Source: an uncultured Gammaproteobacteria bacterium
GTDB lineage: Bacteria > Cyanobacteriota > Vampirovibrionia > LMEP-6097
Direction of reading: 5' to 3'
Length of the DNA stretch: 64,000 nt
Assembly (NCBI GenBank): GCA_964551135.1
Contig: CAZKAT010000005.1
Location: 198,522 to 262,521 of the forward strand
Shown in pieces: positions 20,876 through 47,488 of this stretch. Each line of letters begins with the position of its first letter. The stretch's first letter is position 1. The notes beneath the pieces were generated by a model. It was given only the letters and a program-made list of their open reading frames with translations, made no database searches and had not been told where the DNA came from. A program made the position numbers and the translations under genes.

Positions 20876-21685
20876 TTACATCGTTGTAGACTGAGAGAAA
20901 ACTACTTTAGATTGATAATCAATTTTAGACCACTCATTTTCAGTGCAAGAGAAAAGTTGCTTACGCAGGAAAAGATATTCTAGCAGTAAATAAAGTATTC
21001 TAAATCCCTGCTGGAAAACTTTGGCATTACTGATTTGATCCTCTTCCTTCCAGACTAAAGGAAAAAATTTAAAACTAGATTTTACATGACAACCATAGAA
21101 CAGCATAAACACATTGAAAGTAAGATTATTGGGGAAGTATAAATAAAATTTACTCTTAAGATAGTTAGTACTATATATGTTTAAGCCAGCACCCATATCT
21201 GTAATCCAGTAACCAGTTATCATTGAGCATAATAAATTAAGTCCTATATTGCCCCAGGCTCTTATTAAAGGATAATGGATTAGTTTAGAATTTTTATGAA
21301 ATCTTGATCCTAAGAATGAATCATATGCCTGGTATTCACCACTAGTTAAATGAGGCACAAAATCAGCTACTTCACCTTGATCATCACCATGAAGCACTGC
21401 TACATAATCGTAGCCTTGTATTAATGCGTAATTAAAAGCTACTTTATGAGAACCACCTAAATTATAATTGTCACAATTCTGTAGAAGTGTAGTTTTAACA
21501 TATTTAAGTTTCTCAAGTCCCTGCTGAGCTGCACTTAAACTATTGTCCTTACTACCATTGTCAATGATTACAATTTCAGTAAAAAGCTTTTGTATTTCCT
21601 CACTAAATTTACTAAGAACTCTTGGTATCTGCTTTTCGCAGTTATACATTGGGATAAACAACATGAGCTTAGTTTTACTAGGCAT
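20876..21685 (-). CDS. Family-2 glycosyltransferase (DPM1/ArnC-like). It is a paralog of the ORF at 644..1456 in inverted orientation.
   Basis: LMLFIPMYNCEKQIPRVLSKF, IIDNGSKD and HGDDQG. Collinear with the 644..1456 product at roughly 60% identity. Confidence 0.8.
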   Translation of the reverse strand: MPSKTKLMLFIPMYNCEKQIPRVLSKFSEEIQKLFTEIVIIDNGSKDNSLSAAQQGLEKLKYVKTTLLQNCDNYNLGGSHKVAFNYALIQGYDYVAVLHGDDQGEVADFVPHLTSGEYQAYDSFLGSRFHKNSKLIHYPLIRAWGNIGLNLLCSMITGYWITDMGAGLNIYSTNYLKSKFYLYFPNNLTFNVFMLFYGCHVKSSFKFFPLVWKEEDQISNAKVFQQGFRILYLLLEYLFLRKQLFSCTENEWSKIDYQSKVVFSQSTTM

Positions 21686-21716
21686 AAACAGAAATTATAT
21701 AATACAATTCATATAT

Positions 21717-22214
21717 ATGCAGCCTAAGGTCTTTATTCTTGATGTCGATGGAGTTTTAAATACCGGAAGATTTTTTTATAGCGAACAAGGCAAGATGATG
21801 AAAGAGTTTGGAGCAGATGATAATGATGCTCTATCTTTAATAGATGACTTACTTGAAATTCGTTTTGTAAGCGGTGATAAGAGGGGTTTTGCTATTACTA
21901 AGAAGCGAGTAGAAGAGGATATGAACTATCCTCTTGATCTTGTTAGTACATTTGAACGTATTGACTGGATCAAGAAGCGCTATAATCTTGACGAAGTGAT
22001 ATATATGGGAGATGGAGTTTTTGATTATATGGTCTTTAAAGAGGTCGGTTATAGCATTGCTCCAGCTGCCTCTGATGCTTATACTGCGAAACATGCTGAC
22101 TATATCTGTGAGCGTGCTGGCGGTGATAGGGCTGTAGCAGAAGCTTGTAGGCATTTGATGGATAAATTCTTTGGCGGTTATAATCCTGATAAAATATTGC
22201 AAGTTAGGGAATAA
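21717..22214 (+). CDS. HAD-superfamily subfamily IIIA phosphatase, KdsC-like (ulosonate- or sugar-phosphate phosphatase type).
   Basis: DVDGVLN (HAD motif I), MGDGVFD (motif IV) and the overall KdsC-like length. I moved the start to the ATG at 21717 (MQPKVFILDVDGVL), which removes the overlap with the GT2 gene on the opposite strand. Confidence 0.75.
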   Translation: MQPKVFILDVDGVLNTGRFFYSEQGKMMKEFGADDNDALSLIDDLLEIRFVSGDKRGFAITKKRVEEDMNYPLDLVSTFERIDWIKKRYNLDEVIYMGDGVFDYMVFKEVGYSIAPAASDAYTAKHADYICERAGGDRAVAEACRHLMDKFFGGYNPDKILQVRE

Positions 22215-22265
22215 ACCAAAGGGCAATAAAAAATAGTTCGCTATTATCTTGCCGGCTAAACTATA

Positions 22266-23489
22266 ATGATAAAAGATAGACTTGAAAATTTAATGAAGAA
22301 GAGACGCTGTACTCTACTCGGTGTCGGTCCGATGAGTAAGAATTGTGTTGATGCCACGATAGAGCTTGCTAATGATTATCAAGTACCTTTAATGCTTATT
22401 GCTTCTAGACGTCAGATTGATTCTGAAGCTTTTGGTGGTGGCTATGTTAATAACTGGACTACTGAAGAATATTCTCGTTATGTAATTGATCAGGACAAGA
22501 AGGGTTTTATTATTCTTGCTCGTGATCATGGCGGACCTTGGCAGAATACTATCGAGAAAGAACAGAAGCTGAGTTTAAAGCGCGCTATGGAGTCTGCAAA
22601 GAAATCTTATGAAGCTGACATTCTGTCTGGTTTTGAAGTTATTCATATAGATCCAAGTGAAGATATTTTTGGTAATTCTACAACAGATCAGATACTGGAT
22701 AGAGTTTATGAACTTCTAGAATTTTGTACTAGTGTGGCTCAGAGAGCGAGTAAAGATATAGCTTTTGAAATAGGTACTGAAGAGCAAAGTGGTGGTACTA
22801 ATACTCGCGAGCAACTTGAATATGTTTTGCAGAATGTACTGAGTTTTTGCGATAAGAATAAAATTCAAAGACCTACTTTTATAGTTATACAAACTGGTAC
22901 CAAGGTAATGGAGACTAGGAATGTAGGGACTTTTGATTGGCCGCTGAGAATTACTGGTGAGCTGCCAGCTGAGATTCAAGTGCCGCAGATGATAGAGTTA
23001 TGCAATAAATACAATATATTTATGAAAGAGCATAATACTGATTACCTTTCAGATGAAGCTTTGAGCTGGCATCCTAAGTTTGGTATTCATGCTGCTAACG
23101 TTGCTCCAGAGTTTGGAGTAGAAGAGACTAGAGCTTTCTTGAAACTTTTAGAAGACTATAAGTTACCTAAGCTCACTGATAGATTTATTGATCTGGCTTA
23201 TAACTCTCATAAATGGGATAAGTGGATGTTGCCTAATACTAATGCTGGTAAGCGTGAAAGAGCAATCATTGCTGGTCACTATGTTTTTGCTAAGCCTGAA
23301 TTTCAAGAAATAAAACAAGAAGTACAAAAATCTGCAAAAGATGTAGATATAGATCAATATTTAAAAGATAGAGTTAAATTAAGCATTATGAGATACCTTA
23401 AGGCATTTAGACTTTTAGACATATCTAAATATAGTCTTGGTAATGAAATGCTCATCATGAACAAGCAAGAACAGGAGATTAATATATGA
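22266..23489 (+). CDS. GatZ/KbaZ/AgaZ-family protein (tagatose-bisphosphate aldolase accessory subunit / tagatose-6-phosphate kinase family).
   Basis: N-terminal LLGVGPMSKNCVDATIELAND...LMLIASRRQIDSEAFGGGYVNNWTTEEY...ILARDHGGPWQ follows the GatZ family pattern (SVCSAHP...LIEATSNQV...GGYTGMTP...LGGDHLGP). Confidence 0.6.
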   Translation: MIKDRLENLMKKRRCTLLGVGPMSKNCVDATIELANDYQVPLMLIASRRQIDSEAFGGGYVNNWTTEEYSRYVIDQDKKGFIILARDHGGPWQNTIEKEQKLSLKRAMESAKKSYEADILSGFEVIHIDPSEDIFGNSTTDQILDRVYELLEFCTSVAQRASKDIAFEIGTEEQSGGTNTREQLEYVLQNVLSFCDKNKIQRPTFIVIQTGTKVMETRNVGTFDWPLRITGELPAEIQVPQMIELCNKYNIFMKEHNTDYLSDEALSWHPKFGIHAANVAPEFGVEETRAFLKLLEDYKLPKLTDRFIDLAYNSHKWDKWMLPNTNAGKRERAIIAGHYVFAKPEFQEIKQEVQKSAKDVDIDQYLKDRVKLSIMRYLKAFRLLDISKYSLGNEMLIMNKQEQEINI

Positions 23490-24316
23490 AAAGGACTGCT
23501 ACTATAGTTCTGAATAGAAATCTACCTGAAGTTACTAATAAACTTTGTGAAAACATAGAGAAATATAATTCTGAGTTTACTGATGTATATGTAGTAGAAA
23601 GTGGCTCTAATAAAGATTCTCTGTCTAAATATTGTACTTGGCATGCAGCTTGGCCTGAAGCTATAGAAGAGGGTTTGCGCTATCCAAGAGGTTTTAATTA
23701 TGGTTTACATAAATTATATGAAGAGGGTAAGTTTAAACAATATGATTATTTCTTTCTGGTTTGTAATGATGTAGAGTTTTCTACGCCTAATGTTGTTGAG
23801 GTTCTTGAAGAGGAGATTAATAAGCATCCTAGGCTTGGTATTTTGTCACCATGCTCAGAACAATGGGGAGAAAAAATACTTATAACCGGTAATAATGATG
23901 TGAAATATTTTTGGTATACTCAGTTTCTTTCTTGGTTTGTGAGAAGAGAATTTATCGAAGATATATTACCAATGGAAAATTCAAGTCATCTTAATTTCAT
24001 GTTTGATGGTGCTAATTTTAGAGGTTATGGAGTTGATTTAGAGCTGATAGCTAAAGCTTATGCTAATGATTGGGCTTGTGGTATCACTCCTAGAGCTTGG
24101 CAGACAGAGAATGAATCCTACTTAAAGACTAAGGCTGGGATAATGATGACAGATAGTTATGATATAAACATTCAAAAACTACTTGAAGAAGGTAAGAATT
24201 GGATGCGTAATAAATATGGATTTAATAGTCGCTGGCTAATGCAGATGTATTCTAAGAATTTTTATGATAAGTTTTTTGAACACTATCCTGAATTATTGGA
24301 GTATAGAATTAATTAA
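23486..24316 (+). CDS. Hypothetical protein, possibly a divergent GT2-like glycosyltransferase.
   Basis: TIVLNRNLPEVTN...YVVESGSNKD...FFLVCNDVEF loosely follows GT2 beta-strand and DxD spacing. Its start overlaps the upstream stop by 4 nt. Weak call. Confidence 0.3.
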   Translation: MKRTATIVLNRNLPEVTNKLCENIEKYNSEFTDVYVVESGSNKDSLSKYCTWHAAWPEAIEEGLRYPRGFNYGLHKLYEEGKFKQYDYFFLVCNDVEFSTPNVVEVLEEEINKHPRLGILSPCSEQWGEKILITGNNDVKYFWYTQFLSWFVRREFIEDILPMENSSHLNFMFDGANFRGYGVDLELIAKAYANDWACGITPRAWQTENESYLKTKAGIMMTDSYDINIQKLLEEGKNWMRNKYGFNSRWLMQMYSKNFYDKFFEHYPELLEYRIN

Positions 24317-24318
24317 TT

Positions 24319-24666
24319 ATGGTACAAGTAATAAGTAAACCTTGGGGTAAGGAAGAAGTAATAGAAATTAATGATAAGTATATGATGAAGAAACTTACTA
24401 TGCATAAAGGGCATAGATGTAGTATTCAATACCATAATCATAAGAAAGAAACTATTTATGTACTTGAAGGAATTTTAAATATTTATATTGGTAATAGCGT
24501 TGAAACTCTCACTAAGAAACAGTTTCATCCAGGTGAATCTATAACCATTAGTCCTGGTATTGTACATAGGATGGAAGCTGAATTGGGAGATGCTGTCTAT
24601 CTTGAAGCTTCTACTCCAGAAATGGACGATGTGGTTCGTCTAGTTGATGACTATAAACGCAATTGA
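24319..24666 (+). CDS. Cupin-domain protein (mannose-6-phosphate-isomerase-like or sugar-epimerase-like small cupin).
   Basis: PWGKEEVIE...HKGHRCSIQYHNHKKETIYVLEG...GIVHRMEA has the two-His cupin motifs. It ends with a TGA stop that overlaps the TTG start of the next gene. Confidence 0.6.
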   Translation: MVQVISKPWGKEEVIEINDKYMMKKLTMHKGHRCSIQYHNHKKETIYVLEGILNIYIGNSVETLTKKQFHPGESITISPGIVHRMEAELGDAVYLEASTPEMDDVVRLVDDYKRN

Positions 24667-26237
24667 GCTATAAAGTATTAATTCCTACTGCCGGTACTGG
24701 GTCGCGCTTAGCTGATCTTACTAAAAATATAAATAAATCTCTGGTTGCTATTGCTAATAAACCCTGTATCTCACATATTGTAGAAAAATTTCCTAAAGAG
24801 ATAGTGATTGTTATTGCTCTTGGTTATAAGGGTGAACTAGTTAAAGAGTATTTAGAATTAGCTCATTATGATCGTAAGTTTGAGTTTGTAGAAGTAAGTC
24901 CATATGAAGGTGAAGGATCAGGATTAGGTTTGAGCGTGCTTAGATGTAAAGAATATTTGCAATGTCCTTTTGTTTTCTGTTCTTGTGACACCATTGTGGA
25001 TGAAGAGATAGCAGCTCCAGATAGTAATTGGATGGCTTATGCTCAGATAGATGGTCCTGTAGATCAATACCGCACTGTTCTAGTAGAGTCTGGCAAAGTC
25101 TTAAAATTATTAGAGAAGGGAAACAAGGAAAAGAATATTTATCCCTATATAGGACTTGCTGGAATCCATGACTATAAGAGCTTTTGGCAAGCTATGGAAG
25201 CTGGTGATAATGAGGCTATTACTATTGGTGAGAGTTATGGGTTAAGACAATTAGAAAATATTCATGCTTATAAGTTTACTTGGCACGATACTGGTAATCT
25301 TGAGGCTTTAAACAAGGTTCGTGATAAATTTCATGATCTGGATGGTCCTAATATATTAGAAAAACCTACAGAGGCAATTTGGTTTGCTAATGATAGGGTA
25401 ATTAAATTTAATACAGATACTAAATTTATTTCCGACAGAGTCAAACGTACTCAGGTTCTGGGTGATTTTGTGCCGAAAATTATCCAAGCTACAGAACATA
25501 TGTACTGTTATAGAGAAGTCCAAGGCGAAGTACTTTCTAAGATTATCAATTTAAAAATTTTCGAAAACTTACTTAATTATTCTCAAAAATTTTGGAACTC
25601 AACTCCAACTAAACCTAAAAAATTAAGTCCAGAAAAACAAAAATATTTTAAAGATATCTGCACTGATTTCTATAAGATCAAAACATTTCAAAGAGTTGAG
25701 CAATATTACAAAACTTTTGGCAATACTGACAAAGAAGAAAGTATTAATGGTATAAAACATCCAAGCACTAAAACTTTACTTGAAAACCTAGACTGGGACT
25801 GGATTAGCAATGGACTACCTGGTAATTTTCATGGTGATTTTCATTTTGAGAATATTTTATATGATAAAGATGCTCACAAGTTCACTTTTCTTGATTGGAG
25901 ACAAAATTTTGGTGGCGAGATTGAATATGGAGACGTCTATTATGATTTGGGTAAGCTAAATCATGGCATAATCGTTTCCCATGAATTAATAGCAAAAGAC
26001 TTATATGAGGTTAGCATTAATGGTAATGAAGTTAGATATGACCTACATCGTAAGCAGATTTTAGTAGAATGTGAGAGATTCTTTAAAGAATATTTAGAAG
26101 CTAATAGCTATGATTATCAGAAAGTCTATGTAATGACGGCACTAATCTATCTTAATATTGCAGCATTACATCATTATCCTTATTGTCATTTGCTTTATTA
26201 TTTAGGTAAGAGCATGTTGGCTAAGGCTGCGGACTAG
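24663..26237 (+). CDS. Bifunctional N-terminal nucleotidyltransferase fused to a C-terminal APH/ChoK/AmgK-like kinase.
   Basis: N-terminal LIPTAGTGSRLADLT is the canonical AGxGxRL nucleotidyltransferase motif. C-terminal HGDFHFENILYD...FLDWRQNFGG has the Brenner HGDxxxxN motif plus the DW metal-binding segment. It uses a TTG start at 24663 overlapping the upstream TGA stop. Confidence 0.7.
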   Translation: MSYKVLIPTAGTGSRLADLTKNINKSLVAIANKPCISHIVEKFPKEIVIVIALGYKGELVKEYLELAHYDRKFEFVEVSPYEGEGSGLGLSVLRCKEYLQCPFVFCSCDTIVDEEIAAPDSNWMAYAQIDGPVDQYRTVLVESGKVLKLLEKGNKEKNIYPYIGLAGIHDYKSFWQAMEAGDNEAITIGESYGLRQLENIHAYKFTWHDTGNLEALNKVRDKFHDLDGPNILEKPTEAIWFANDRVIKFNTDTKFISDRVKRTQVLGDFVPKIIQATEHMYCYREVQGEVLSKIINLKIFENLLNYSQKFWNSTPTKPKKLSPEKQKYFKDICTDFYKIKTFQRVEQYYKTFGNTDKEESINGIKHPSTKTLLENLDWDWISNGLPGNFHGDFHFENILYDKDAHKFTFLDWRQNFGGEIEYGDVYYDLGKLNHGIIVSHELIAKDLYEVSINGNEVRYDLHRKQILVECERFFKEYLEANSYDYQKVYVMTALIYLNIAALHHYPYCHLLYYLGKSMLAKAAD

Positions 26238-28434
26238 GCAATGCTTGTGTTGTGGCATATATGGCTATAGCTTTATCGGATTTAAGCAATAGTTCCCTGG
26301 CTTTCCCTAAATCAAATTGGGATTGTTCTCTACTTGGAAAAATGAACTTACCATGTTCAGAGTCGAATTGATGGAATTCTCTCGTGGCATCTTGGTAACC
26401 AAGTATCCAAACATAATCGTCATTTGCATATTGATTAATTTTTTCTGTTGTGGCAACAAATTTATACAATCGATACTCGTAAGGTGCTTTATCTGGTATC
26501 TTATCTACTAATTTGAATAAGTTCGGATCTTCAAGCCTTTTCTCTGCTGCCTTAGATAAGGCATTGTTTTTATGAATTAAAATAAAATCTACTCTCAATT
26601 CCTCTAATAGTCTAGGGTTCAAAGTATAAAGAGCTGTTTTTTGCGTAGTATATTCAGGCTTAAGTAATACTCCACCTATATCATAGAACCCTGCGATAAG
26701 CGGACAATCATAAGCCCATGGGATTTGATCTTCGTCATAATGTAGTATTACTCTGCCAGATCTTTGATTAGACTTGAGCATTTTAACTAAGCTTCTTTCA
26801 GTCTTGTTGAATCGATATCCAGTTATCGCAAATCTCTCATTTGGGATGAAATTTGCTAAGCCAGGTAATAAAGAAATTACAAGGCAAACAGGTAAAATGA
26901 ATCGTAGAATTTTTCTCTTGCTGAAAAATTTAAATTCTTTTTCTAAAGCATATAAGCTTATTGCAACAAAAATCATTGCATAAAGCTTAGCTGGGAATAG
27001 GAACCGAGTTAATTCAATAGGTGCAATGCAAAATTCAAAAAGGAAAACTGGAGCAAGGCTGACTAGAGAAGATAGCATTAAAAGTTTTTGTATGAAACTT
27101 AATGATCGTTTTTTGTACCCCCAAATAAATAGAAATATGACTAAGGCTAAGAGGATCATGAAACCAAATTCTCTAAAGGATAAAGAAGAAAACAAAGGTA
27201 CTTCGAATTTATATCTGCCAGCCCTTTCTTCGTAACTTTTGCCTAAGCTAAATAAATACTCGGGCTTATAGAAATAACTTAAATAGCGTAGATAGCCTAC
27301 AGTCCAAGTTAAGTGTGGTTTAAAGCTCATAGCTTCAATACCGTTGATTTTAGATTGACTGCCAGTGAACGTAAGGAGTTTTCCAAGACAAATCATTACG
27401 AAAAATATAACTGTCGGGTTTTGAAAAATTGTTTGAATTTTATTGATGCTTTGTATACTGAAATTAAATAGGAATTTTATTACAAAATAACTAGCTCCTA
27501 GTGTTAATAAGTAGGCTGGGAAAATAAAATAAGACATAAAGGAAACACCTAGAACAGATAAGTAGAAATAGAAGTTTTGTTGTTGATTAGATTCTAATTG
27601 AATGGTCTGTAAAATCAATATGAGTAGATATACTAGACCAAAGAGTATAGGTAGGCTATTAGAACAGCCAGATAAAGCATCAGTTGAAACTTGAGAATTC
27701 ATTAGCCAATCTTTAATGAATTCAAAAAGTTCATATTGCTTCATATTCAATATTTCCCGTACAAGAAAGTCCAGTGAATTAATTGAAGTGAATAATATTA
27801 TTGAAATGCAGGCAAGTAATGAATATTTTTTATTTTCAGCGTCAGAATTAATAATTTTGAAAAGTAATATGGGCAGTAAGAAAGCTGCTATGGCTAATTG
27901 AGCTCCATTTAATGTAAAAGGATCAATATTCTTAGCAAATATTTGAAAGAAAGCACCCACAAGATCAATACCATAATGATAAAAGTTAAAAACTATATCC
28001 TTATTTATTAGAAGTCTAGGAGGGTAATAATCATTCATCGCTATATTTGCCGAATATGCCAGATGTTGTGCGTCACCAATATTCATGAGCTGATTGCGAA
28101 GAAAGCATAATAAGGATAGAAGCATAGAGACTAGTATTAGGATGATCTCGCCTAATTCTGGTTTATTGATTGCAAATGTATTACGATAATTTTTCAGAGC
28201 GAAAACGGCTAAAACTAGCATTGGTATTAAAACAAAATACATAGCTTGCGTGAAGCTGTGTATTAATAAGGCAAGTAAATGCGAAGCTAATATGAATTGC
28301 GATAAGCCAATTAAAATAGAGAGACAAATGAAACTAATTAGTGAACTCTTGAGGTTAGAATTGGATTTTTTATAAATCCAAGCCCCATTGATAAAGATCA
28401 GTCCTAGGACTAGTATTAGGACTATAGAGCTCAT
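26221..28434 (-). CDS. Large polytopic membrane protein (737 aa) with a C-terminal soluble domain. Putative GT-C-like glycosyltransferase or polymerase, one of the paralog family.
   Basis: Many hydrophobic helices in the first ~500 aa. Loop motif NDYYPPRLLINKDIVFNFYHYGIDLVG. The C-terminal domain NPRLLEELRVDFILIHKNNALSKAAEKRLEDPNLFKL is collinear with the 30103..32400 product. Confidence 0.5.
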   Translation of the reverse strand: MSSIVLILVLGLIFINGAWIYKKSNSNLKSSLISFICLSILIGLSQFILASHLLALLIHSFTQAMYFVLIPMLVLAVFALKNYRNTFAINKPELGEIILILVSMLLSLLCFLRNQLMNIGDAQHLAYSANIAMNDYYPPRLLINKDIVFNFYHYGIDLVGAFFQIFAKNIDPFTLNGAQLAIAAFLLPILLFKIINSDAENKKYSLLACISIILFTSINSLDFLVREILNMKQYELFEFIKDWLMNSQVSTDALSGCSNSLPILFGLVYLLILILQTIQLESNQQQNFYFYLSVLGVSFMSYFIFPAYLLTLGASYFVIKFLFNFSIQSINKIQTIFQNPTVIFFVMICLGKLLTFTGSQSKINGIEAMSFKPHLTWTVGYLRYLSYFYKPEYLFSLGKSYEERAGRYKFEVPLFSSLSFREFGFMILLALVIFLFIWGYKKRSLSFIQKLLMLSSLVSLAPVFLFEFCIAPIELTRFLFPAKLYAMIFVAISLYALEKEFKFFSKRKILRFILPVCLVISLLPGLANFIPNERFAITGYRFNKTERSLVKMLKSNQRSGRVILHYDEDQIPWAYDCPLIAGFYDIGGVLLKPEYTTQKTALYTLNPRLLEELRVDFILIHKNNALSKAAEKRLEDPNLFKLVDKIPDKAPYEYRLYKFVATTEKINQYANDDYVWILGYQDATREFHQFDSEHGKFIFPSREQSQFDLGKARELLLKSDKAIAIYATTQALPSPQP

Positions 28435-28435
28435 T

Positions 28436-30073
28436 TCAAATCTTTTCCTTTCTTAACTTAGCAACTCTAAGAGCTATGAACAATAGCATGAAATGTATGA
28501 ATTGTAATCTATATCTTGGTTCACACATGGTTATTAGAATTGGGAAGAATGCAAAATATAGAGCTGAAATTAAGACTATCAATTCAAAAATATCAAATTG
28601 ATGAGTTTTATAGAGATTCAATAAGTACACTATCAAAGCAATTAGAAAAACAGGTAAAATAACCCAAATCCATGGGGTGAATGCAAATAGTCTTTGCCAC
28701 CAAGGTGAGAGACCTTCTACCTTATGCCAAAAGCCATAAGGAGTATCCATATTAACCATAACTAAATATTTATCACTTGGATCCATTTTGAAATAACTAA
28801 AGAAACTATGTGCTTTAGAAAGCTGGTTCTTTTCTATATGTATAACCTGCGCCTCTGAGTGAGCTAATTTGGGATCTAGGTTACTTGTAAGGCTGAAGGG
28901 AACTAGTGTGAATTGTATCGGATTAAATCCAACGTTAGGTCTGATAGAGGACTCATAAACAAAAAGTCCTAGGTCTTCTTTTGCAAACATATTTACCATT
29001 GAAACTCTGAAAATTCTTTTTAAGGTTTTAATTGGTTGTCCTAAGGAAAGATCAAGGAAGTATTCAGTGCAGATCTTAGACCATTCATTAGGAGGAATGG
29101 CTGCTTGAGTATAAGGATGTATTATTCTCCCTTCCCTGCCAGCAACACTGATTCTGGATATCGCTAAATAGAATGGTGATGTAACAGAATTAGTATCGTT
29201 AATAGCAAACTCTTGTTTGAATTTATCCGTAGTGTTAATGAATATATCAGTTAACCAGGGATGCCGAGTTTGAGTTCTGGAGTAGATCATATCTTCCGTT
29301 AAAGCCCAGAGTAGAACACCAGCGCCTGAACGGGCAGCTTCATTGGTGGAGACATCAAAAATCTTAGATTGAGAGTAATTGAAACAACAGATTGGCCATT
29401 TGACAACATAGCTACATGAATAGAAAACAATAGCTGCCAAAATAAACTTGCTGATTTTTTTCTTTAATAGAAAATATAATCCATATAAACCAATCACTAT
29501 TGTGATTGACAGTATCCATAGATCAGAAATCGGTTTGGTAAGGGAAGATAGTCCAGCAGAAAATCCTGCGCTAGCAGCATAGATCCAAAAGAATACTGGA
29601 TTGGAATTATAGAAAATTTCTTGTATTAGTTTAATAGTAAGTAATAAGAAAAATACATGAAAAGCTTCTGGCATAACCACTTGTTCCATATATAGGAGAG
29701 CTGGATTGAGAGAAAATATTATACTTGCTATTAACGCTAATATTCGATTAGAGTTAGCTTGGCAAAGTATCCAGTAGATTAATATAGTGGAAGCTACTCC
29801 ACAAAGTTTATGTAATATGATTACTTCACTAACATCCCCTGTATGGTTAATTTGTATAAAATAATTTATTATCCGATTAAATAATCCAAAGTTAATGCTA
29901 GAAAGTAACCAGCCAAAATTACGTTCATTGATAATTTGCAGAGGGACAAAGTATTTAGGCGAATCTGCTACAAACAATGTAGGTACGTTGGAGCTAAAGC
30001 GTAAAATCAAACTAAATCCAGCAAAGATGAGGAAAGGTAAATGATTATTTAGTATTGTTTTGTTTTTGCTCAT
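28436..30073 (-). CDS. Polytopic membrane protein, putative GT-C-fold glycosyltransferase (ArnT / PMT-like).
   Basis: About 12 predicted transmembrane helices, with a first extracytoplasmic loop carrying VADSPKYF and a large loop in the middle. The layout resembles GT39/GT83 enzymes. Its stop abuts the start of the 737-aa paralog gene (28434/28436). Confidence 0.4.
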   Translation of the reverse strand: MSKNKTILNNHLPFLIFAGFSLILRFSSNVPTLFVADSPKYFVPLQIINERNFGWLLSSINFGLFNRIINYFIQINHTGDVSEVIILHKLCGVASTILIYWILCQANSNRILALIASIIFSLNPALLYMEQVVMPEAFHVFFLLLTIKLIQEIFYNSNPVFFWIYAASAGFSAGLSSLTKPISDLWILSITIVIGLYGLYFLLKKKISKFILAAIVFYSCSYVVKWPICCFNYSQSKIFDVSTNEAARSGAGVLLWALTEDMIYSRTQTRHPWLTDIFINTTDKFKQEFAINDTNSVTSPFYLAISRISVAGREGRIIHPYTQAAIPPNEWSKICTEYFLDLSLGQPIKTLKRIFRVSMVNMFAKEDLGLFVYESSIRPNVGFNPIQFTLVPFSLTSNLDPKLAHSEAQVIHIEKNQLSKAHSFFSYFKMDPSDKYLVMVNMDTPYGFWHKVEGLSPWWQRLFAFTPWIWVILPVFLIALIVYLLNLYKTHQFDIFELIVLISALYFAFFPILITMCEPRYRLQFIHFMLLFIALRVAKLRKEKI

Positions 30074-30102
30074 AAAAGGCCTTACTCTATTATAATAACA
30101 GT

Positions 30103-32400
30103 ATGCTCACTCCTTGTTTATTTATAGCCTACTTAGCTATTCTCCTTATCTTCGGAGATATATTGATTAGTAGATCTTTCGCCACATTAAATTATCCAGC
30201 TAAATTGAGTTCTCGAATTGCAGTAGCATTGCCATTTGGTTTAGCATTCCATTTATTTACTGCTCATATTTTGGCTCTTTTTGCTACACATAGTTATAGA
30301 ATTGCAGCTTGTTTGAGTATTGGTTTAATGTTGCTGATAATTATTATTGCCGAGTTTAAACAATATTATTCATTAAATAACTTAGGTCAAGATTTATTAT
30401 CCTTTGGTAAGTCTAAGGAAGCTTGGGTAATTGTTCTTGGATTATTGATTGCAGTTAGTTGCGGTATCAGAGGACATTTAACTGACTCAGACAATACTCA
30501 TATACCTTGGATGGCAGGCATAGTACTGAATAATGACTATCCGCCATTACTGCCAGTAAATCCAGAATATAATTTGAGTTTTTATCATTATGGAATTGAT
30601 CTTCTCAATTCATCAATTTTCTCAATTACAGGAGCACTTCCTTGGGATGCTATTAGTATGCAAGTTGGCATTGGAGCTTTCTCAGTGTTTCTTGTAATCT
30701 ATGCTATTTATGATTATTTTTTCAAATCATTTGTCATAACTTTTCTGGCAACTTTATTTACTACTTTCTTTACTTCAATAATGGGACTTGAGTTTATTTA
30801 TAAATTTGCTAGTAAGATTTCAGAATGGGGCGTGAAGGGTTTCTTCTATTATTGGCAGCAAGCTAGCTTACCTGCTATTGGACATATACCTTATAATCTA
30901 GTGCTTATATCTCAAGATATGGGAACGGCTCCTTTATTGGTAATACTTCTGTTCTTACTGATTCTTAAAGATCAAACAGATTATAAATTTAGTTTTTTCA
31001 AAATAGGATTGCCAGTTCTGTTACTTTCTTTTCTGACTTATTTTTGTTATGAAGCATATTGGTATGTGAGTTTTGCTGGTCTAGGATTACTTTTTACTTT
31101 AGAAGTACTTGTTGCATTGTTTAGAAATCAGTTTGGTTCAATCCAAGTCCGTCAAAAACTATTAAATTTCTTTTTCTTTATGGCTTGCTATAGCATTGCG
31201 AAGTTTTTAACTTTCAGATCAGGGTTTTCTTCATTCGATAATATTAATGCTCTAGTGATTCATCCAACACTATATTGGGATCACTTTGCGATGCAGTTCT
31301 TGAATTTCTTCCCGCCACCAATGGATAATCATACTGTATTACCAGTGCGTGATTATGTTTCAGGGAAGATTATTCTCAATGTTTACTTATGGTCAATGGT
31401 TAGTTTTCGTAACTGGGGATTTTTGACTATAGTGGTGATTCTACTCAGTGCCTATAAATTATTTAAGAAACAATTTGATAACAGTTTTGTATTTGTGTTT
31501 GCAGGTGCAGCGGGATTGTTTGTGCCATTTATTGTGGACTATGTTGTCAAGCCAAGTGAGACTTATAGATTCCCAGCTTGGACTATGATCATGTTTCTAT
31601 TCTTTGTTGTTATTTCAGTAATCAAATTAGTACAGGAAAATACTAAGTTGCAGAGCTTATTAAAGCCTCTGCCTATAAGGATTTTATTGATAGTCAATTT
31701 GTTGTTTTTCCTATTGCCTGGAGTGGCATCTATAGTTCCTTCCTTCGGACATGTGGCATATGGCGTGGATGATAGGCTTACTAAACCACAGAAATTAGCC
31801 TTAGAAGTAATGATCAAGATTCATAAGCCTGGCGAGATAGGCTTAGCTGCTAGACCTTTTTACTGGATGAGTGATATCGCTAATGTTGCAGGATTCTATG
31901 GTGTTGGAGGACAGATGTCTAAGATGGATATGCTTACAAGGAAAACAGCTATTAATTTAATGAATCCAATCTTGCTTCAGGAATTAAAAGTAAATTATAT
32001 ATTGGTAGATAAGAATGATGTCCTGAGTGAAGCAGCTTTGGAGCGTTTAAAGAACCCAAGCTTGTTTGAAGAGATTACTAAAGTGCATGAACTTAATCCA
32101 GATTGGCATTTCTATCGTTTTGTAAATCAGATAGGCTATGATCCAACTCAGATAAGTTTATTAAAGGATGAGTACGATTGGGTTGTGGGGTCTAAGTTTG
32201 GTTATGAATTTAAACCATTAGTGTTTGAGAATAACGTAATGTACATTGGTGAAGAGAGAAGGGAATTAGAAGGTATAGTGAAGAACTATAAGCAGAAACT
32301 TAAAGTGGACAATATACCAGTTGCTATGTGGCTTGTTGCTGAAGCTATAACAAAACCAGAGCTAGAAGCTGTATTTGAGAGTCAGAGACAGCGGCAATAG
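30103..32400 (+). CDS. Large polytopic membrane protein (765 aa), paralog of the 26221..28434 product.
   Basis: NNDYPPLLPVNPEYNLSFYHYGIDLLN and the C-terminal NPILLQELKVNYILVDKNDVLSEAALERLKNPSLFEE are collinear with the 737-aa paralog. It is transcribed divergently from the 28436..30073 gene. Confidence 0.5.
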   Translation: MLTPCLFIAYLAILLIFGDILISRSFATLNYPAKLSSRIAVALPFGLAFHLFTAHILALFATHSYRIAACLSIGLMLLIIIIAEFKQYYSLNNLGQDLLSFGKSKEAWVIVLGLLIAVSCGIRGHLTDSDNTHIPWMAGIVLNNDYPPLLPVNPEYNLSFYHYGIDLLNSSIFSITGALPWDAISMQVGIGAFSVFLVIYAIYDYFFKSFVITFLATLFTTFFTSIMGLEFIYKFASKISEWGVKGFFYYWQQASLPAIGHIPYNLVLISQDMGTAPLLVILLFLLILKDQTDYKFSFFKIGLPVLLLSFLTYFCYEAYWYVSFAGLGLLFTLEVLVALFRNQFGSIQVRQKLLNFFFFMACYSIAKFLTFRSGFSSFDNINALVIHPTLYWDHFAMQFLNFFPPPMDNHTVLPVRDYVSGKIILNVYLWSMVSFRNWGFLTIVVILLSAYKLFKKQFDNSFVFVFAGAAGLFVPFIVDYVVKPSETYRFPAWTMIMFLFFVVISVIKLVQENTKLQSLLKPLPIRILLIVNLLFFLLPGVASIVPSFGHVAYGVDDRLTKPQKLALEVMIKIHKPGEIGLAARPFYWMSDIANVAGFYGVGGQMSKMDMLTRKTAINLMNPILLQELKVNYILVDKNDVLSEAALERLKNPSLFEEITKVHELNPDWHFYRFVNQIGYDPTQISLLKDEYDWVVGSKFGYEFKPLVFENNVMYIGEERRELEGIVKNYKQKLKVDNIPVAMWLVAEAITKPELEAVFESQRQRQ

Positions 32401-32407
32401 ATTTACT

Positions 32408-33271
32408 CTATTTAACTTTTTTCAGTAAGAATTCGTTGTTTAATAGTCCATTATTACAGATCAAATTCTCTAAGTTAAAACCTTTCTTTTGTAAGAATAG
32501 AAATATCTCTGCAACCGTAGCAAACTCATAAGGATAGCCACCTAGCCAATCAATGATATCTGTTTTCCAGCTCATGCCTCTAAAGTTAATATGATTCTTT
32601 ATTTGTTTGAATGGATTTGTGAAAGTAGCTAAATAGAAGCAGATTAAAGCAGTCATGGCTAAGTAGTCAATAAAAAATTGAAGAAATTTAGGTAAGCTAG
32701 TATAGAATTTCTTTTCGGCAAGCCACATATAAGAATTACCAAACCTGAAATCTGGATAAATATTAAAACCATCAGATTTATTATAGATAGCAATGCACAT
32801 ATATCCATCTGCTTTAACAAGTCTTGCTGCATGATCTATGGCTGTCCACATATTGCCTGTGTGATGTAATACTCCCCATGAATAAACAAAATCATAAGTG
32901 CCAAGGCTATTTACAAAGCTTTCATCTAGTATAGATCCATGAGTTATTTCCCAGTTCTCTGGATTGCCTTCTGCTTCTCTCAATCTCCGGCAACATTCGA
33001 CTGAATTTTCATCAATGTCTAAGCTTAGAATTTTTTTCGCTCCAAGTCTATGAGCAACTAAAGAGAACAGACCGCTGCCGCAACCTATATCAACAAAAGT
33101 TTTCCCTTGAATATTTTCTTCTCCACAGAATTTCTTAGTGGCTTCGATGGCATATTCTATAACGGTATCATTAAGGCAATTATCAAGGTAATGTGACCAA
33201 TTCTCACCAAAACGGAAAAAATTCTTGGGTTTACGTATAGATTCGTTTTTGGTAATTGTCTGAGTATTCAT
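32408..33271 (-). CDS. Class I SAM-dependent methyltransferase.
   Basis: Motif I FVDIGCGSGLFSL and the acidic motif II SLDIDEN. Confidence 0.7.
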   Translation of the reverse strand: MNTQTITKNESIRKPKNFFRFGENWSHYLDNCLNDTVIEYAIEATKKFCGEENIQGKTFVDIGCGSGLFSLVAHRLGAKKILSLDIDENSVECCRRLREAEGNPENWEITHGSILDESFVNSLGTYDFVYSWGVLHHTGNMWTAIDHAARLVKADGYMCIAIYNKSDGFNIYPDFRFGNSYMWLAEKKFYTSLPKFLQFFIDYLAMTALICFYLATFTNPFKQIKNHINFRGMSWKTDIIDWLGGYPYEFATVAEIFLFLQKKGFNLENLICNNGLLNNEFLLKKVK

Positions 33272-33327
33272 TTTCTAGTTTAGTTTATCATTTTTGTGAA
33301 GTAATAAGTGCCATCTTCTCCAAAATC

Positions 33328-34224
33328 CTACCTCTTTGCTACACACATTAGCCCAGTACTGTTCCCTATAAGTCCCTGTAAAAATGCCACTGGGATAAAA
33401 GCCAGACTTAATGGAACCATATAGAATGACATACCATTTCTTAATTGACTATGAAATAACTTAGTATCTTGAAGCATATTCTGTATGGATATAGCCCACT
33501 GAGCTGGATCTAGGTCTGTATAAAATTTAGTAGTAGAAAATTTGCAATTATCAGCTATGAGTTGAAGATTTTGCTTATTGAATAGATGTATATGTCTTGG
33601 AATATGTAATCCTGCCCAATATTTACCAAAGATTGCAAACTCAATTGCTTTAGTATTAGGAGTGAATAAGATTATTTGTCCAGAAGGATTAAGTTTAGCG
33701 TAGCAATTCTTCATAACGGCTATTGGATCAAGGAAGTGTTCTATAACATTATTGAGCAAGATGATATCAAACTTCTCTGCAAAAGGAATTTCCTGTTCTA
33801 CATTGGCTATTTTGACTTGAACCCCATTGTCCATCAGCCTTGCAGCTGCAGCACTACTAAAATCACAGCCGTATAAATTCTGATAACCTAGATCTTTAAA
33901 TGCCATTAACAACTCTCCATTGCCATAGCCAATTTCTAGAATTTTAGAATCCTTGTTGAAAAACTTAGTGAGTTTTTTTGCTTGGTTGCGGAATTTTATT
34001 TTTTTAAGCTGAGAAAAAACTCCTGAGCCGATTGGCAAATAATTCCTATACTCAGATGGATAAAAGCTGCTAATGTCATTAAGCTTAGGAAGCGGCTTTT
34101 GGTATATTAATCCGCAGTTACTACATTGATAGAGGTCAATTGGACTGCAGGTTTCATACTCCCAGTCCTTAAGTCCTGTAAATTTAATGGTGTCTTGATT
34201 GCAACTACAGACAATACAGCTCAT
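33328..34224 (-). CDS. Class I SAM-dependent methyltransferase with an N-terminal Cys4 zinc-ribbon.
   Basis: N-terminal CIVCSC...CSNCG (CxxC...CxxC). Motif I ILEIGYGNGELL and motif II GCDFS. Confidence 0.7.
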   Translation of the reverse strand: MSCIVCSCNQDTIKFTGLKDWEYETCSPIDLYQCSNCGLIYQKPLPKLNDISSFYPSEYRNYLPIGSGVFSQLKKIKFRNQAKKLTKFFNKDSKILEIGYGNGELLMAFKDLGYQNLYGCDFSSAAAARLMDNGVQVKIANVEQEIPFAEKFDIILLNNVIEHFLDPIAVMKNCYAKLNPSGQIILFTPNTKAIEFAIFGKYWAGLHIPRHIHLFNKQNLQLIADNCKFSTTKFYTDLDPAQWAISIQNMLQDTKLFHSQLRNGMSFYMVPLSLAFIPVAFLQGLIGNSTGLMCVAKR

Positions 34225-34914
34225 CTAATGATTCGCAACTCCTGCCTTGTAATCGACGTTATATTCATTATTAGGTATGACTACTGTACTAACATCAGGT
34301 CTAAACATACCTTCATTTTTAATTGTTGGTAGAGAAGGCACTGGCGGCTCAAAAATATATGGACCAGGATTGAGATCAGCAGGTTTAGTTTGTTTCTTAT
34401 TGATCCAGTCTATGCCATGGAAATCCTTAAATCCTAGAGTATGAACTTTCCATCTTCTGTTTCTCATTGGCACATCTTCAGCCCAAGCATTCTTTAACCA
34501 AGAACTGAATACGACTCTAAATGCAGGTTGAAGAAAACCCATCCAGCTAGGTACATGCATATTGTAATAAATTTTCATTCTTGATCTATTATTAGGCAGA
34601 TCAAAGAAGTGTACTTCCATATCTAGCATGCCATAGAGATCCTTATGAACAGTTCTCATAATGTGTGGTTCAGGCATAAATTGGAAACCTATCCCTTCGT
34701 TCTCAAAAGGTACTACAGGAATCTTCGCTCTTCTGTAAACTAGTGCCCAATCATCTCTTTCAGCTAAGATTCTTGCTTCTCTATAAAGCTTCTGGTGAGT
34801 ACCAAGTAAGTGTTCATGGTCATAATAATTCCACATTATTACTTCCTTCGGGCAATCTTGTTCTAGCTCTAATTCTAAAGTAAGTTTAGTTCTACCATTG
34901 TCGTTTTTTGCCAT
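34225..34914 (-). CDS. Rieske-type non-heme-iron oxygenase catalytic domain, encoded separately from its Rieske domain.
   Basis: The mononuclear iron motif D-x2-H-x4-H is present as YYDHEHLLGTH (D32, H35, H40). The ATG lies 5 nt after the stop of the Rieske-domain ORF, in a different frame. Confidence 0.55.
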   Translation of the reverse strand: MAKNDNGRTKLTLELELEQDCPKEVIMWNYYDHEHLLGTHQKLYREARILAERDDWALVYRRAKIPVVPFENEGIGFQFMPEPHIMRTVHKDLYGMLDMEVHFFDLPNNRSRMKIYYNMHVPSWMGFLQPAFRVVFSSWLKNAWAEDVPMRNRRWKVHTLGFKDFHGIDWINKKQTKPADLNPGPYIFEPPVPSLPTIKNEGMFRPDVSTVVIPNNEYNVDYKAGVANH

Positions 34915-34919
34915 AAAAA

Positions 34920-35318
34920 TTATCCTAATAAGTTTACATAAACTTTATTACCATCAACCTTAAGTTGATACTGTCTTAAAGGCAAGCCTGGATTAGTTTT
35001 ACATGAACCATCAGCACAGGAGAATTGCCAATTATGCCAAAGACAAGTAAACACTCCATCCTTAGCCTTACGATAGCCTACTGGTCCACCAAAATGAGGG
35101 CAAATATTGCTGATAGCTTTCAATTCACCTTCATGTTTATAAAGCAAAATATCGTGATCATTAATCCAACGTGATAATTGTCCATGTGGCTCAAGTTCGT
35201 CTATAGTTGCCAAGAATTGAAAATCTTGTCCCTGTTGGTTTTGATTTTTAACTGTTAATAATGTATCTTCGCTAACCATTTCAATCCAGGATTGTAACAC
35301 AGCAGGCTTAATTTTCAA
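34920..35318 (-). CDS. Rieske [2Fe-2S] domain protein, the N-terminal half of the split oxygenase.
   Basis: CPHFGGPV...(17 aa)...CLWHNWQF gives the canonical CxH-x15-17-CxxH Rieske ligand pattern. Confidence 0.8.
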   Translation of the reverse strand: MKIKPAVLQSWIEMVSEDTLLTVKNQNQQGQDFQFLATIDELEPHGQLSRWINDHDILLYKHEGELKAISNICPHFGGPVGYRKAKDGVFTCLWHNWQFSCADGSCKTNPGLPLRQYQLKVDGNKVYVNLLG

Positions 35319-35337
35319 TCAACCTTAGGGATATATG

Positions 35338-37098
35338 TTAAGACCCATTCTTTATTTTATCAAGATCGATAATGGCATAGCCAATTCTTTTCTCAGCCAT
35401 AAATCTTTCTAAGAAAAAAGATTCTCCTGGATTGAGTTTAACTAGTTCTTGAGATAAAGCATTATATGGTTCTAAGTAGACAGGATTATTAATATAAGGT
35501 TGTTGATAGAAATTATATAAAGCCAGAAAATAATTTATGTGATTGGCATCAGCAAGTTTAACAAACTCATCTCTAGACTTGGCATAAGTCATTCTTATAG
35601 CTACTTCATTACGTCTTCTGATTTCAGCAAGAGATTCATGAGTATAAGCCATGCTACGTTCGTAATCTATAAACACTTTGCGTTTACTAGTAATTGAGAC
35701 TGTACTAATATCTGGCAATAGTGGATGGGCGGCAATTAGACTATCTTTAGGAGTTTGTGACAAGACTTCATTAACAGCTGGAGTAACAGAAACATACCTA
35801 GCATGATAAAAGGTACGAGTTATATTCCAATAATAGCCCGTACTAATCAATAAAGCTAGTACAAAAACCTTATCAGCAATTGACTTTGGTAATTCATGAG
35901 ACAGCTGCCATAGCCAGATGCCAACAATTAGAGTTAAGCATATAACAGAAAGTAATAAAGAAGGTACCGCTAGATATCTACTGGGTAAGTATAATACTGG
36001 GAACAGTAATTGTGATGCTATATATAAGGAAATAGCAGCATATAGTAGTGTTGCTGGACTAGAACTAAATATCACAGAAAAAGAATTGTAGAAAATATTT
36101 TTGGTCTTACTGTTTTTTTTAGTATTTATGCCAACTAGTACGAAAAATAAATAAAACAAGCTAGCTACAAAAGCATATTTAATAATAGAGCTAATGGGAA
36201 GGTAACCAATGCCTAGTCCCCAATGTTCATTTTGCCACCAACTACCATCCCAAACAGATGAACCAAATATCGGATGACGTCCTCCAGGATTGAATTCTGG
36301 TAAAGCTTTCATCTCTGCTACAGTGAATGATGTGCCAACACCTTGAGTTTTAATATCTTTGAAAATTACTAGATAAGTAAACGCTACTACTGCTGCATTA
36401 AATAACCAGAGTAAAAATTCTTTGCGTTTAAAATCTATAAAATTAAGACGATATTTAATAATGCCATCAAAAAACTCCATGGCGAAGCAAATTAAGAAAG
36501 CATGCGGACTAACAAAAATACTGATTAGGCATAGTAACCCTGCTGTAATATTTTTGTTAATAAGTTTAAAATACATATAACTCAAGATGCCTAGCCACAC
36601 TAGTGAACGTGAGTGTGCTGCAGAAAGGTGATCAGTACACCATGTAGTCGTTACTAGTGCAGTTGAGAAACATAGAGCCCAGAGATCTATTAATGCAATG
36701 TTAGTACCAAGAATTTTTACTTGATTTAAATTCTTGGTGAAACTTTCATAATGATTAAGTAATGCTTGAAAGAATAAAAACGCAGAAGCTCCTGTTAGGA
36801 TGGCCATGATTAAGGCTAAGAATTTTGAGAAGAAAATTAAGCTTGGAGTAAACAAAGGTGCAAGTTTGTATACCAAAAAAAGTAAAGGAACTCTATAAGT
36901 ATGAGATTCATACATAGGTGCAAAGAAATCATTTTTAAATAATTCTGGATCCCAAAGGCGCCATGTCCAAAACATGCTTTGTCTGAAATCATCCTGTACT
37001 ACCAGCTCATCACCAATAATAGGGCCTAAGATTTGCCAGCTAATAACAAATGCAATGATTGAAGCTAAAATAACATAGTATATTTGAGGTTTTTTCAT
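35338..37098 (-). CDS. Polytopic integral membrane protein (hypothetical). First gene of the oxygenase and methyltransferase operon.
   Basis: 586 aa with more than 10 hydrophobic helices and no recognisable catalytic motif. There is a 19-nt gap to the Rieske gene downstream. Confidence 0.45.
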   Translation of the reverse strand: MKKPQIYYVILASIIAFVISWQILGPIIGDELVVQDDFRQSMFWTWRLWDPELFKNDFFAPMYESHTYRVPLLFLVYKLAPLFTPSLIFFSKFLALIMAILTGASAFLFFQALLNHYESFTKNLNQVKILGTNIALIDLWALCFSTALVTTTWCTDHLSAAHSRSLVWLGILSYMYFKLINKNITAGLLCLISIFVSPHAFLICFAMEFFDGIIKYRLNFIDFKRKEFLLWLFNAAVVAFTYLVIFKDIKTQGVGTSFTVAEMKALPEFNPGGRHPIFGSSVWDGSWWQNEHWGLGIGYLPISSIIKYAFVASLFYLFFVLVGINTKKNSKTKNIFYNSFSVIFSSSPATLLYAAISLYIASQLLFPVLYLPSRYLAVPSLLLSVICLTLIVGIWLWQLSHELPKSIADKVFVLALLISTGYYWNITRTFYHARYVSVTPAVNEVLSQTPKDSLIAAHPLLPDISTVSITSKRKVFIDYERSMAYTHESLAEIRRRNEVAIRMTYAKSRDEFVKLADANHINYFLALYNFYQQPYINNPVYLEPYNALSQELVKLNPGESFFLERFMAEKRIGYAIIDLDKIKNGS

Positions 37099-37146
37099 AG
37101 TGCTCGCATAGTTATCAGTGAATCATTATATAATTAAGCCTCGAGA

Positions 37147-45702: not shown

Positions 45703-45710
45703 TATTAAAC

Positions 45711-47431: not shown

Positions 47432-47488
47432 ATTATCTCAAGGATAATATCATATTATGGTTATTATTTCAGTAATAATTGGTCTATT

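Follow-up and report, generated by a model that had tools for sequence, protein, structure and literature searches.

Enzymes of the GT-C fold make extracytoplasmic glycoconjugates, which include protein N-, O-, and C-glycans, lipid A modifications, and mycobacterial arabinan. Their N-terminus lies on the cytoplasmic side (N-in), and new families with this fold are hard to spot by sequence. The OST catalytic subunits (STT3/PglB/AglB, GT66) carry a WWDYG motif in the C-terminal domain, and PglB, AglB, and PglL/WaaL are en bloc glycan transferases. GtrB and ArnC are known to make the polyprenyl-phosphate sugars on which GT-C enzymes draw, and the bacterial proteins carry two C-terminal TM helices. 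The three components of GtrA/GtrB/GtrC periplasmic glycosylation are a flippase, an Und-P-sugar synthase, and a GT-C enzyme.

The whole stretch of DNA analysed here (the window) is 64,000 nucleotides in length and contains three paralogous genes, labeled A, B, and C. From their models and sequences, the products are probably three active members of an unannotated GT-C-fold family that uses polyprenyl-phosphate sugars and forms a branch of the DUF2298 superfamily. The genes, their conserved segments, and the associated glycosyltransferase genes are as follows.

1 to 593, minus strand: paralog C, N-terminal 197 aa, with the gene cut at the left window edge.
644 to 1456, plus strand: GT2 no. 1, 270 aa, Pfam GT2, divergent from C and separated from it by 50 bp; a candidate for the synthesis of polyprenyl-phosphate sugars.
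20876 to 21685, minus strand: GT2 no. 2, 269 aa, Pfam GT2, 63% identical to GT2 no. 1.
26221 to 28434, minus strand: paralog A, 737 aa, with a predicted 14 TM helices and, after them, a C-terminal alpha/beta domain predicted to be periplasmic (residues ~530-737).
27922 to 28086, minus strand: signature loop of A, residues 117-171, with D121, H124, N134, Y137-P-P, Y152-H-Y-G, and D157.
28436 to 30073, minus strand: PMT/ArnT-like GT-C, 545 aa, Pfam PMT, with a periplasmic insert of ~240 aa.
30103 to 32400, plus strand: paralog B, 765 aa, organized like A.
30472 to 30639, plus strand: signature loop of B, residues ~124-179, with D130, H133, N143, Y146-P-P, Y161-H-Y-G, and D166.
31735 to 32397, plus strand: C-terminal soluble domain of B, residues ~545-765, with AGFYGVGG, T615, NPxLLxEL, and W693.

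The ORF calls for A, B, C, and the 545-aa protein agree with the positions given in the original prediction, and the paralogy that it proposed is borne out by BLASTP. A aligns with B over the full length (E=6e-57, 26% identity), and C aligns with B (E=9e-21) and with A (E=1e-19). Identities in the family alignment are 24% for A-B, 28% for A-C, and 29% for B-C. A, B, and C are true paralogs, with similarity far above chance. The public protein P0014 is identical to A. Full-length C is the public protein P0022 (705 aa), which matches all 197 window residues (197/197, 100%). Beyond the left window edge lie the remainder of C and then citrate synthase. B has 13 close homologs, none of which is named.

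The original prediction could not place the family. This holds for direct searches: for A, B, C, and 48 core-family members there were no matches to Pfam or NCBIfam models, and phmmer and profile searches of PDB sequences with the family returned only noise. When 1.84 billion representatives were searched exhaustively, ~54 family clusters were recovered at E <1e-30, and a profile search of genome contigs with a narrower family alignment gave four loci. The family is rare and unnamed. It is not an orphan, however. The distant tail of the profile search consists of proteins of ~620-1000 aa, mostly 640-680 aa, and among 61 of these, 14 match PF10060 (DUF2298) and six match TIGR03662 (Chlor_Arch_YYY), with a best value of 2e-15. 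The core family aligns by hhalign with the DUF2298-matching relatives at probability 100 and E=5.6e-58; the alignment spans 625 columns, takes in the C-terminal domain, and has an identity of ~17%. The relatives retain the loop pattern DDxxH..GNFPP..YHYGxDLL, and their genes also adjoin NDP-sugar genes and GT2s.

By sequence comparison, the family is a divergent branch of the DUF2298 (PF10060)/TIGR03662 Chlor_Arch_YYY superfamily. None of the 48 core members, A, B, and C included, matches the PF10060 or TIGR03662 models, even at E=0.1-1. The kinship is visible only through intermediate sequences and hhalign, so the family is treated as a sister family within the DUF2298 superfamily and not as a member. 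DUF2298 and TIGR03662 are families of unknown function, and the kinship therefore assigns no function; the literature searches yielded no study of function for DUF2298, TIGR03662, or PF10060. DUF2298 is presumably a member of Pfam clan CL0111. Searches on the clan were uninformative, and it is not used as evidence here.

The AlphaFold (AF2) models are of good confidence, with a pLDDT of 91.2 and pTM of 0.92 for A, and 78.8 and 0.83 for B. When model A was compared by Foldseek with 350,542 PDB chains, the best matches were all GT-C enzymes (17/17), with E from 2e-6 to 0.6. They include DPY19 (2e-6), PglB (6e-6), STT3A, Stt3, AglB, AftA, ArnT, Pmt4, Pmt1/2, and ALG3. The top 11 have a probability of 1.00 and E <=6e-4, and after the 17 GT-C matches the probability is <=0.14. 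Model B was built independently, and its best matches are likewise all GT-C (8/8). Global TM-scores against solved GT-C structures are low to modest (0.28-0.47; 0.41/0.47 by Foldseek for A against AftA). The GT-C reading of the original prediction is thus upheld at the level of predicted structure, and a GT-C fold for the family is supported. The family appears to be a new one within this known fold class. A transporter or unrelated fold, which the original prediction had set against the GT-C reading, was rejected on the Foldseek ranking, in which no transporter scored; the helical transporters MFS, LeuT, and ABC have a probability of <=0.14 against A.

The TM profile and the AF2 model of A both give 14 TM helices. 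The predicted topology is N-out, with apparently three extra N-terminal helices, and differs in this from the N-in arrangement of GT-C enzymes. Cytoplasmic loops contain 18.9 K/R per 93 residues (20%), while periplasmic loops contain 12.3 per 217 (5.7%). Because of this positive-inside bias, the signature loop, the beta insert, the ExxRF motif, and the C-terminal domain are assigned to the periplasmic side.

Conservation was read from family alignments of 46-48 sequences. In the loop, Y-P-P is conserved at 100/100/94% and Y-H-Y-G at 96/98/79/98%. The Asp ahead of the motif (D121 in A, D130 in B) is D in 90% and D/E in 94%, the His is conserved at 79%, and the Asn at 90%. All signature residues are retained in A, B, and C. 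The loop motif of the original prediction is real and is a family signature, with the exception of its final [IV]G, which fails for B (HYGIDLLNS). The proposed check for a conserved Asp/Glu in a periplasmic loop leads to this same D121/D130, which directly follows a TM helix at the start of the loop assigned to the periplasm. In the model of A, a juxtamembrane helix (residues 123-133) follows TM4. The signature loop of A may be catalytic and is the putative counterpart of EL1 in GT-C enzymes. Given the low global TM-scores, D121/D130 is a putative counterpart of the GT-C catalytic Asp.

The ExxRF motif is also conserved, with E474 and R477 among the signature residues. The shared C-terminal motif described originally, NPxLL[EQ]EL..V.[FY]IL, was recovered with conservation of P 96%, L 100%, L 96%, E 92%, and L 98%. 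It lies within an alpha/beta domain of ~210 aa that is present in the models of both A and B, and a conserved aromatic/Gly motif, AGFYGVGG, lies near the start of the domain. The C-terminal domain alone has no relatives in Pfam or among PDB sequences.

The 545-aa protein was described as ArnT/PMT-like, and it matches Pfam PMT (PF02366) at 32.9 bits against a cut-off of 22.7, over residues 84-214 only. Its D37, located after TM1, is invariant in seven orthologs. The Pfam PMT model does not match A, B, or C, and hhalign finds no relation between the family and the neighboring PMT-like family, nor between either of these and a 586-aa membrane protein. A distance of 1 bp separates the stop codon of the PMT-like gene from the start of A, and this spacing indicates an operon. 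B is divergent from the PMT-like gene, with start codons 29 bp apart. Gene order is conserved among relatives. A B-type gene adjoins a PMT-like GT-C gene in all seven distinct loci with sufficient flanking sequence (L001, L003, L004, L005, L007, L008, and L011/12). In L016, the PMT-like gene is ~9 kb from the B-type gene.

A/C-type genes are paired divergently with a 270-aa GT2 in the window and in L005, L008, and L015. The two GT2s of the window were originally called DPM1-like. Both genes exist, but the likeness to DPM1 is weak, with matches to DPMS (5mlz) at E ~1e-6 over residues 4-149 and to ArnC at ~4e-3. Their best NCBIfam matches, to AglJ, PpgS, Dol-P-hexose transferase, and ArnC, are weak; those to PpgS, AglJ, and ArnC are at 1e-6 to 1e-8 and far below the cut-offs. 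No TM helix is predicted in either. In the related clusters L012 and L016, the GT2s match GtrB sll0501 (E ~1e-58) and ArnC (1e-31 to 1e-42), and the GT2 of the DUF2298-relative cluster L019 is 35% identical to that of L012. Each of these three has two C-terminal TM helices, and by sequence they are clearly of GtrB/ArnC type. Nucleotide-sugar genes vary among the clusters, while the GT2 and GT-C genes are constant. Independently of the fold, the genomic context speaks for lipid-linked glycosylation.

The family resembles GT-C enzymes (ArnT/PMT/PglB-STT3/DPY19/AftA) in its polytopic fold by Foldseek, in an acidic residue at the head of a long, predicted extracytoplasmic loop that includes a juxtamembrane helix, in conserved Arg/Glu on a later loop predicted to be periplasmic, and in the coupling of its genes to GT2s that in related clusters are of the polyprenyl-phosphate sugar synthase type. 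The soluble, probably periplasmic C-terminal domain is a likeness to the OSTs. The family differs from GT-C enzymes in having no detectable sequence similarity to them, different signature motifs, a predicted N-out topology across 14 TM helices, and a C-terminal domain without a recognizable relative. The gene logic of the Gtr system, a GT2 synthase beside a GT-C gene, is shared, and true GtrB homologs are present in related clusters. Unlike the Gtr system, the window cluster has several GT-C genes (the three paralogs, the PMT-like gene, and perhaps the 586-aa protein), its GT2s are of the soluble-looking 270-aa type, and it contains no GtrA-like flippase gene. There is no room in the cluster for this or any other dedicated flippase, since the longest intergenic gap between 1 and 44 kb is 188 bp.

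On the models, the most likely role of A, B, and C is glycosylation of a surface molecule on the outer side of the cytoplasmic membrane. The nucleotidyltransferases, kinases, and modifying enzymes of the cluster would make NDP-sugars, and the GT2s would load the sugars onto polyprenyl phosphate at the cytoplasmic face. Once flipped, the lipid-linked sugar would be exposed on the periplasmic side, where each paralog would pass its sugar to a growing glycoconjugate. The D..H..N..YPP..YHYGxD loop and ExxRF may bind the lipid phosphate and activate the acceptor, which the C-terminal domain may help to hold. The PMT-like GT-C would be part of this pathway and possibly its priming enzyme, and a difference in linkage or position is most likely what sets the three paralogs apart.

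Alternatively, the paralogs could be OST- or ligase-like enzymes that move a whole, preassembled glycan from undecaprenyl-diphosphate to a protein, such as the giant PKD protein, or to another acceptor. PglB, STT3A, Stt3, and AglB are among the best Foldseek matches (E 6e-6 to 6e-4), the putative periplasmic C-terminal domain follows the last TM helix with AGFYGVGG near its start, and a giant secreted PKD protein of 4220 aa is encoded nearby in the window, as one also is in L001. In related clusters, however, the conserved partner GT2s are of the polyprenyl-monophosphate synthase type, and no initiating phosphoglycosyltransferase or Wzx-type flippase was recognized in the window. The family has no Pfam STT3 match and no match by sequence to a PDB OST chain. 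A reading of the family alignment showed no WWDYG among the conserved positions; those in the C-terminal domain are AGFYGVGG, NPxLLxEL, and a W. Three paralogs and a PMT-like enzyme also fit stepwise addition better, and en bloc transfer is considered unlikely.

A GT-C-like fold could also serve another role, with A, B, and C as polysaccharide polymerases, exporters, or structural/scaffold proteins for glycan machinery. The original prediction had raised a polymerase role, and DUF2298 has no known function. Three copies are compatible with an exopolysaccharide locus, as is the AsnB-type amidotransferase, which resembles an EPS-associated XrtA-system enzyme (572 bits, short of the cut-off of 817). 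Against this, no transporter, Wzy, or WaaL structure is among the significant Foldseek matches, and the strictly conserved D, H, N, H, E, and R appear to cluster on the periplasmic side as an active site would, which makes such a role quite improbable. It is very improbable that the GT-C likeness arises spuriously when large all-helical membrane models are compared and that the true function is unrelated. Two independent models place only GT-C enzymes on top, the drop after these matches is abrupt, the helical transporters remain below it, and the genomic context points the same way as the fold.

Stepwise transfer from polyprenyl-phosphate sugars is the preferred reading, and it gives a family lacking any public model an assigned fold and a probable reaction class. 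By extension, the same may apply to the long-standing DUF2298/Chlor_Arch_YYY families. Both acceptors named in the original prediction, the giant PKD protein and LPS, are speculative, and the PKD protein is a guess. In a more specific and rather doubtful proposal for these Melainabacteria, the PMT-like enzyme would prime O-glycosylation of the PKD protein, and the three GT-C paralogs would extend the glycan stepwise, with polyprenyl phosphate as the carrier. An unusual sugar or cyclitol, produced through the adjacent DHQS-like, kinase, and nucleotidyltransferase genes, could be among the donors. If true, this would be the first function for the whole DUF2298/Chlor_Arch_YYY superfamily. Experimental handles are D121, H124, N134, YPP, YHYG, E474, and R477, together with the pairing of PMT-like with B-type genes and of GT2 with A/C-type genes. 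The locus also suggests that the poorly studied Melainabacteria, which are non-photosynthetic cyanobacteria, have a variable glycan island whose chromosomal position is fixed.

The three paralogous membrane proteins and the PMT-like GT-C protein are encoded as follows:

1-593, minus strand: paralog C, 197 aa, cut by the window edge
26221-28434, minus strand: paralog A, 737 aa
28436-30073, minus strand: PMT-like protein, 545 aa, above the Pfam PMT threshold
30103-32400, plus strand: paralog B, 765 aa

The ORF map agrees with the coordinates in the original prediction, and the paralogy proposed there was confirmed by alignment. The A-B alignment spans both proteins in full (E=6e-57, 26% identity), while C aligns to B and A with E=9e-21 and 1e-19, respectively. 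Over its 197 window residues C is identical to P0022, a 705-aa protein in public data; the third paralog is therefore complete. The C gene is followed by citrate synthase, just beyond the window.

The predicted loop and C-terminal motifs are present, except that B departs from the loop pattern at its final two positions. These motifs have the highest conservation of the entire family alignment: YPP 100/100/94%, YHYG 96/98/79/98%, a preceding acidic residue (D/E) in 94%, and NPxLLxEL 96-100%. Every signature residue is present in A, B and C, and thus no paralog resembles a decayed copy. Family members can be sorted into three groups, A-like, B-like and C-like.

A, B and C have no matches to Pfam, NCBIfam or PDB sequence models, and a Pfam scan of 48 family members placed none (0/48) in any family. 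Only 13 relatives of B, all unnamed, came out of a word-indexed search in 5.8 billion proteins. A profile search run exhaustively against 1.84 billion cluster representatives returned 144 matches at E<=1e-3, only 54 of which reach E<=1e-30. The source is a metagenome-assembled genome with 34.5% GC. Records of relatives are labeled Melainabacteria, Caenarcanales or "uncultured Gammaproteobacteria", and homologs of one neighboring gene are labeled Melainabacteria or Cyanobacteria; the lineage is therefore most likely non-photosynthetic cyanobacteria.

The weak tail of the profile search is composed of membrane proteins of about 620-1000 aa, the majority 640-680 aa. Pfam DUF2298 is matched by 14 of 61 weak-tail proteins and TIGR03662 (Chlor_Arch_YYY) by 6 of 61, with a best E of 2e-15. 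The weak-tail consensus retains DDxxH..GNFPP..YHYGxDLL, and when the core family is compared with the weak-tail set in hhalign, the alignment extends over 625 columns and takes in the C-terminal domain (probability 100, E=5.6e-58). Judged from these profile comparisons, the core family is a divergent sister of DUF2298/Chlor_Arch_YYY. The literature search found no functional study of either family. An appendix table lists a Chloroflexi locus with a DUF2298 gene alongside PMT_2-type genes (PMC8756737). Among the homologous loci (numbered with L), L018 and L019 carry Pfam-DUF2298-matching proteins within glycan operons. L018 contains an NTP-transferase, an epimerase and DUF2298 in series; L019 contains DUF2298, a GT2, a 597-aa membrane protein, a GtrB-like GT2, an SDR and a split transketolase.

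AlphaFold2 models were obtained for A (46 sequences, pLDDT 91.2, pTM 0.92) and B (15 sequences, pLDDT 78.8, pTM 0.83). In a Foldseek search of 350,542 PDB chains, the best 17 matches of the A model are all GT-C glycosyltransferases (17/17). These include DPY19 (E 2.3e-6), PglB (6e-6) and human STT3A (1e-5), with yeast Stt3 and AglB within the top 11 (E<=6e-4) and ArnT, Pmt4, Pmt1/2 and ALG3 at ranks 12-17. The best TM-score, 0.41/0.47, belongs to AftA. The paralog trio is real and the GT-C reading of the original prediction essentially right: the core family is a new, unannotated family within a known kind (GT-C fold, DUF2298 superfamily).

Topology was assigned from the 14 helices of the A model, with K/R counted over 46 sequences. 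One loop set has 18.9 K/R per 93 residues and the alternate set 12.3 per 217. By the positive-inside rule, the N-terminus and signature loop (A 117-171), the beta-rich insert (354-416), the loop carrying E474-x-x-R477-F478 and the C-terminal domain are predicted to be periplasmic. A TM helix immediately precedes D121 of A (D130 of B), and this residue caps a short juxtamembrane helix. ArnT, PglB and PMT structures show the same arrangement in the first external loop of GT-C enzymes. Unlike these, the core family has three helices ahead of this element and an N-terminus predicted outside.

The PMT-like gene ends 1 bp before the start of A, and B starts 29 bp from the PMT-like gene on the opposite strand. 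In independent loci, a B-type gene consistently adjoins a PMT-like homolog directly: L001, L003, L004, L005, L007, L008 and L011/12; in L016 they are about 9 kb apart in one cluster. In the window (50-bp gap) and in L005, L008 and L015, a second paralog forms a divergent pair with the 270-aa GT2. The GT2s of the window resemble polyprenyl-phosphate sugar synthases only weakly, with no TM helix predicted. The cluster GT2s of L012, L016 and L019 have two C-terminal TM helices. Those of L012 and L016 match GtrB (sll0501) at ~1e-58 and ArnC at 1e-31 to 1e-42, and the L019 GT2 is 35% identical to that of L012. No room for a GtrA-like gene was found within the window.

The GT2s would make polyprenyl-phosphate sugars, from which glycosyl units would be transferred in the periplasm one step at a time. 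This pathway would also include the PMT-like enzyme, with the three paralogs providing different linkages or positions. We consider this scheme likely. The main rival is en bloc transfer of an OST or ligase type, favored by the OST structures among the Foldseek matches and by the C-terminal domain. Arguing against it are zero sequence matches to OSTs, no recognized initiating phosphoglycosyltransferase or Wzx flippase, and partners of the GtrB type. The family represents no new principle; it is of moderate interest because a set of DUFs gains a testable function.

Candidate acceptors and one further membrane protein are:

6643-19305, minus strand: giant PKD-repeat protein, 4220 aa, N-terminal hydrophobic anchor or signal
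19456-20847, plus strand: secreted PKD/DUF2341/LamG protein, 463 aa
35338-37098, minus strand: polytopic membrane protein, 586 aa, DD pair after TM1, soluble C-terminal domain

The giant protein co-occurs with GT-C genes in the window and L001, the smaller one in four loci, and PKD-type homologs adjoin GT-C genes in L001, L004 and L005. Neither was seen in the retrieved 10-kb flanks of L011/12 and L016, so their role as acceptors is only suggestive. The 586-aa protein has no Pfam or NCBIfam match, and hhalign found no relation to A/B/C or the PMT-like family. Its 82 homologs, all "hypothetical", come from Melainabacteria/Cyanobacteria MAGs, and L001 retains it. It may be an additional unrecognized GT-C-like enzyme.

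Between clusters, nucleotide-sugar genes vary while GT2 and GT-C genes stay. Citrate synthase borders three cluster versions, that of the source genome (left window edge/L013) and those of two relatives with different sugar genes (L012 and L016, the latter with DegT, PglD-like, ATP-grasp and MBOAT genes, for example). Such an arrangement suggests a glycan island of variable content whose chromosomal site is conserved. Other segments noted in the window are:

2123-4964, minus strand: four-gene operon beside the GT2 at 644-1456
21543-26237: second set for sugar activation
32408-39066: two SAM methyltransferases, a Rieske protein with a 229-aa family-less partner, an AsnB-type amidotransferase
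43487-50215, right cluster border: sulfate assimilation genes (PAPS-reductase-family CysD-like protein, CysN-like GTPase, sulfite/nitrite reductase)

The operon encodes an NTP-transferase (244 aa), a kinase-like protein (321 aa, HGNPTLEN motif, no Pfam match), an SDR and a DHQS-like, sugar-phosphate-cyclase-type enzyme. The last scores 214 bits with the aroB model, below the 305 cut-off, and also matches "AroB-related sugar phosphate phospholyase". From its gene content, the operon appears to supply an NDP-activated cyclitol or unusual sugar. The second set contains a KdsC-like phosphatase, a GatZ-like protein, a 276-aa protein of no family, a small cupin of mannose-6-P-isomerase type and a 524-aa nucleotidyltransferase and APH-type kinase fusion. 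The listed phosphatase ORF overlaps the GT2, so its true start is probably near 21705. In L001, L005 and L011 the methyltransferase, Rieske, partner and amidotransferase genes of 32408-39066 accompany the GT-C pair, suggesting that they tailor the glycan by methylation, oxygenation and amidation; the best NCBIfam match of the amidotransferase, below cut-off, is the XrtA/PEP-CTERM system amidotransferase. The sulfate assimilation genes may be ordinary housekeeping or tied to glycan sulfation.
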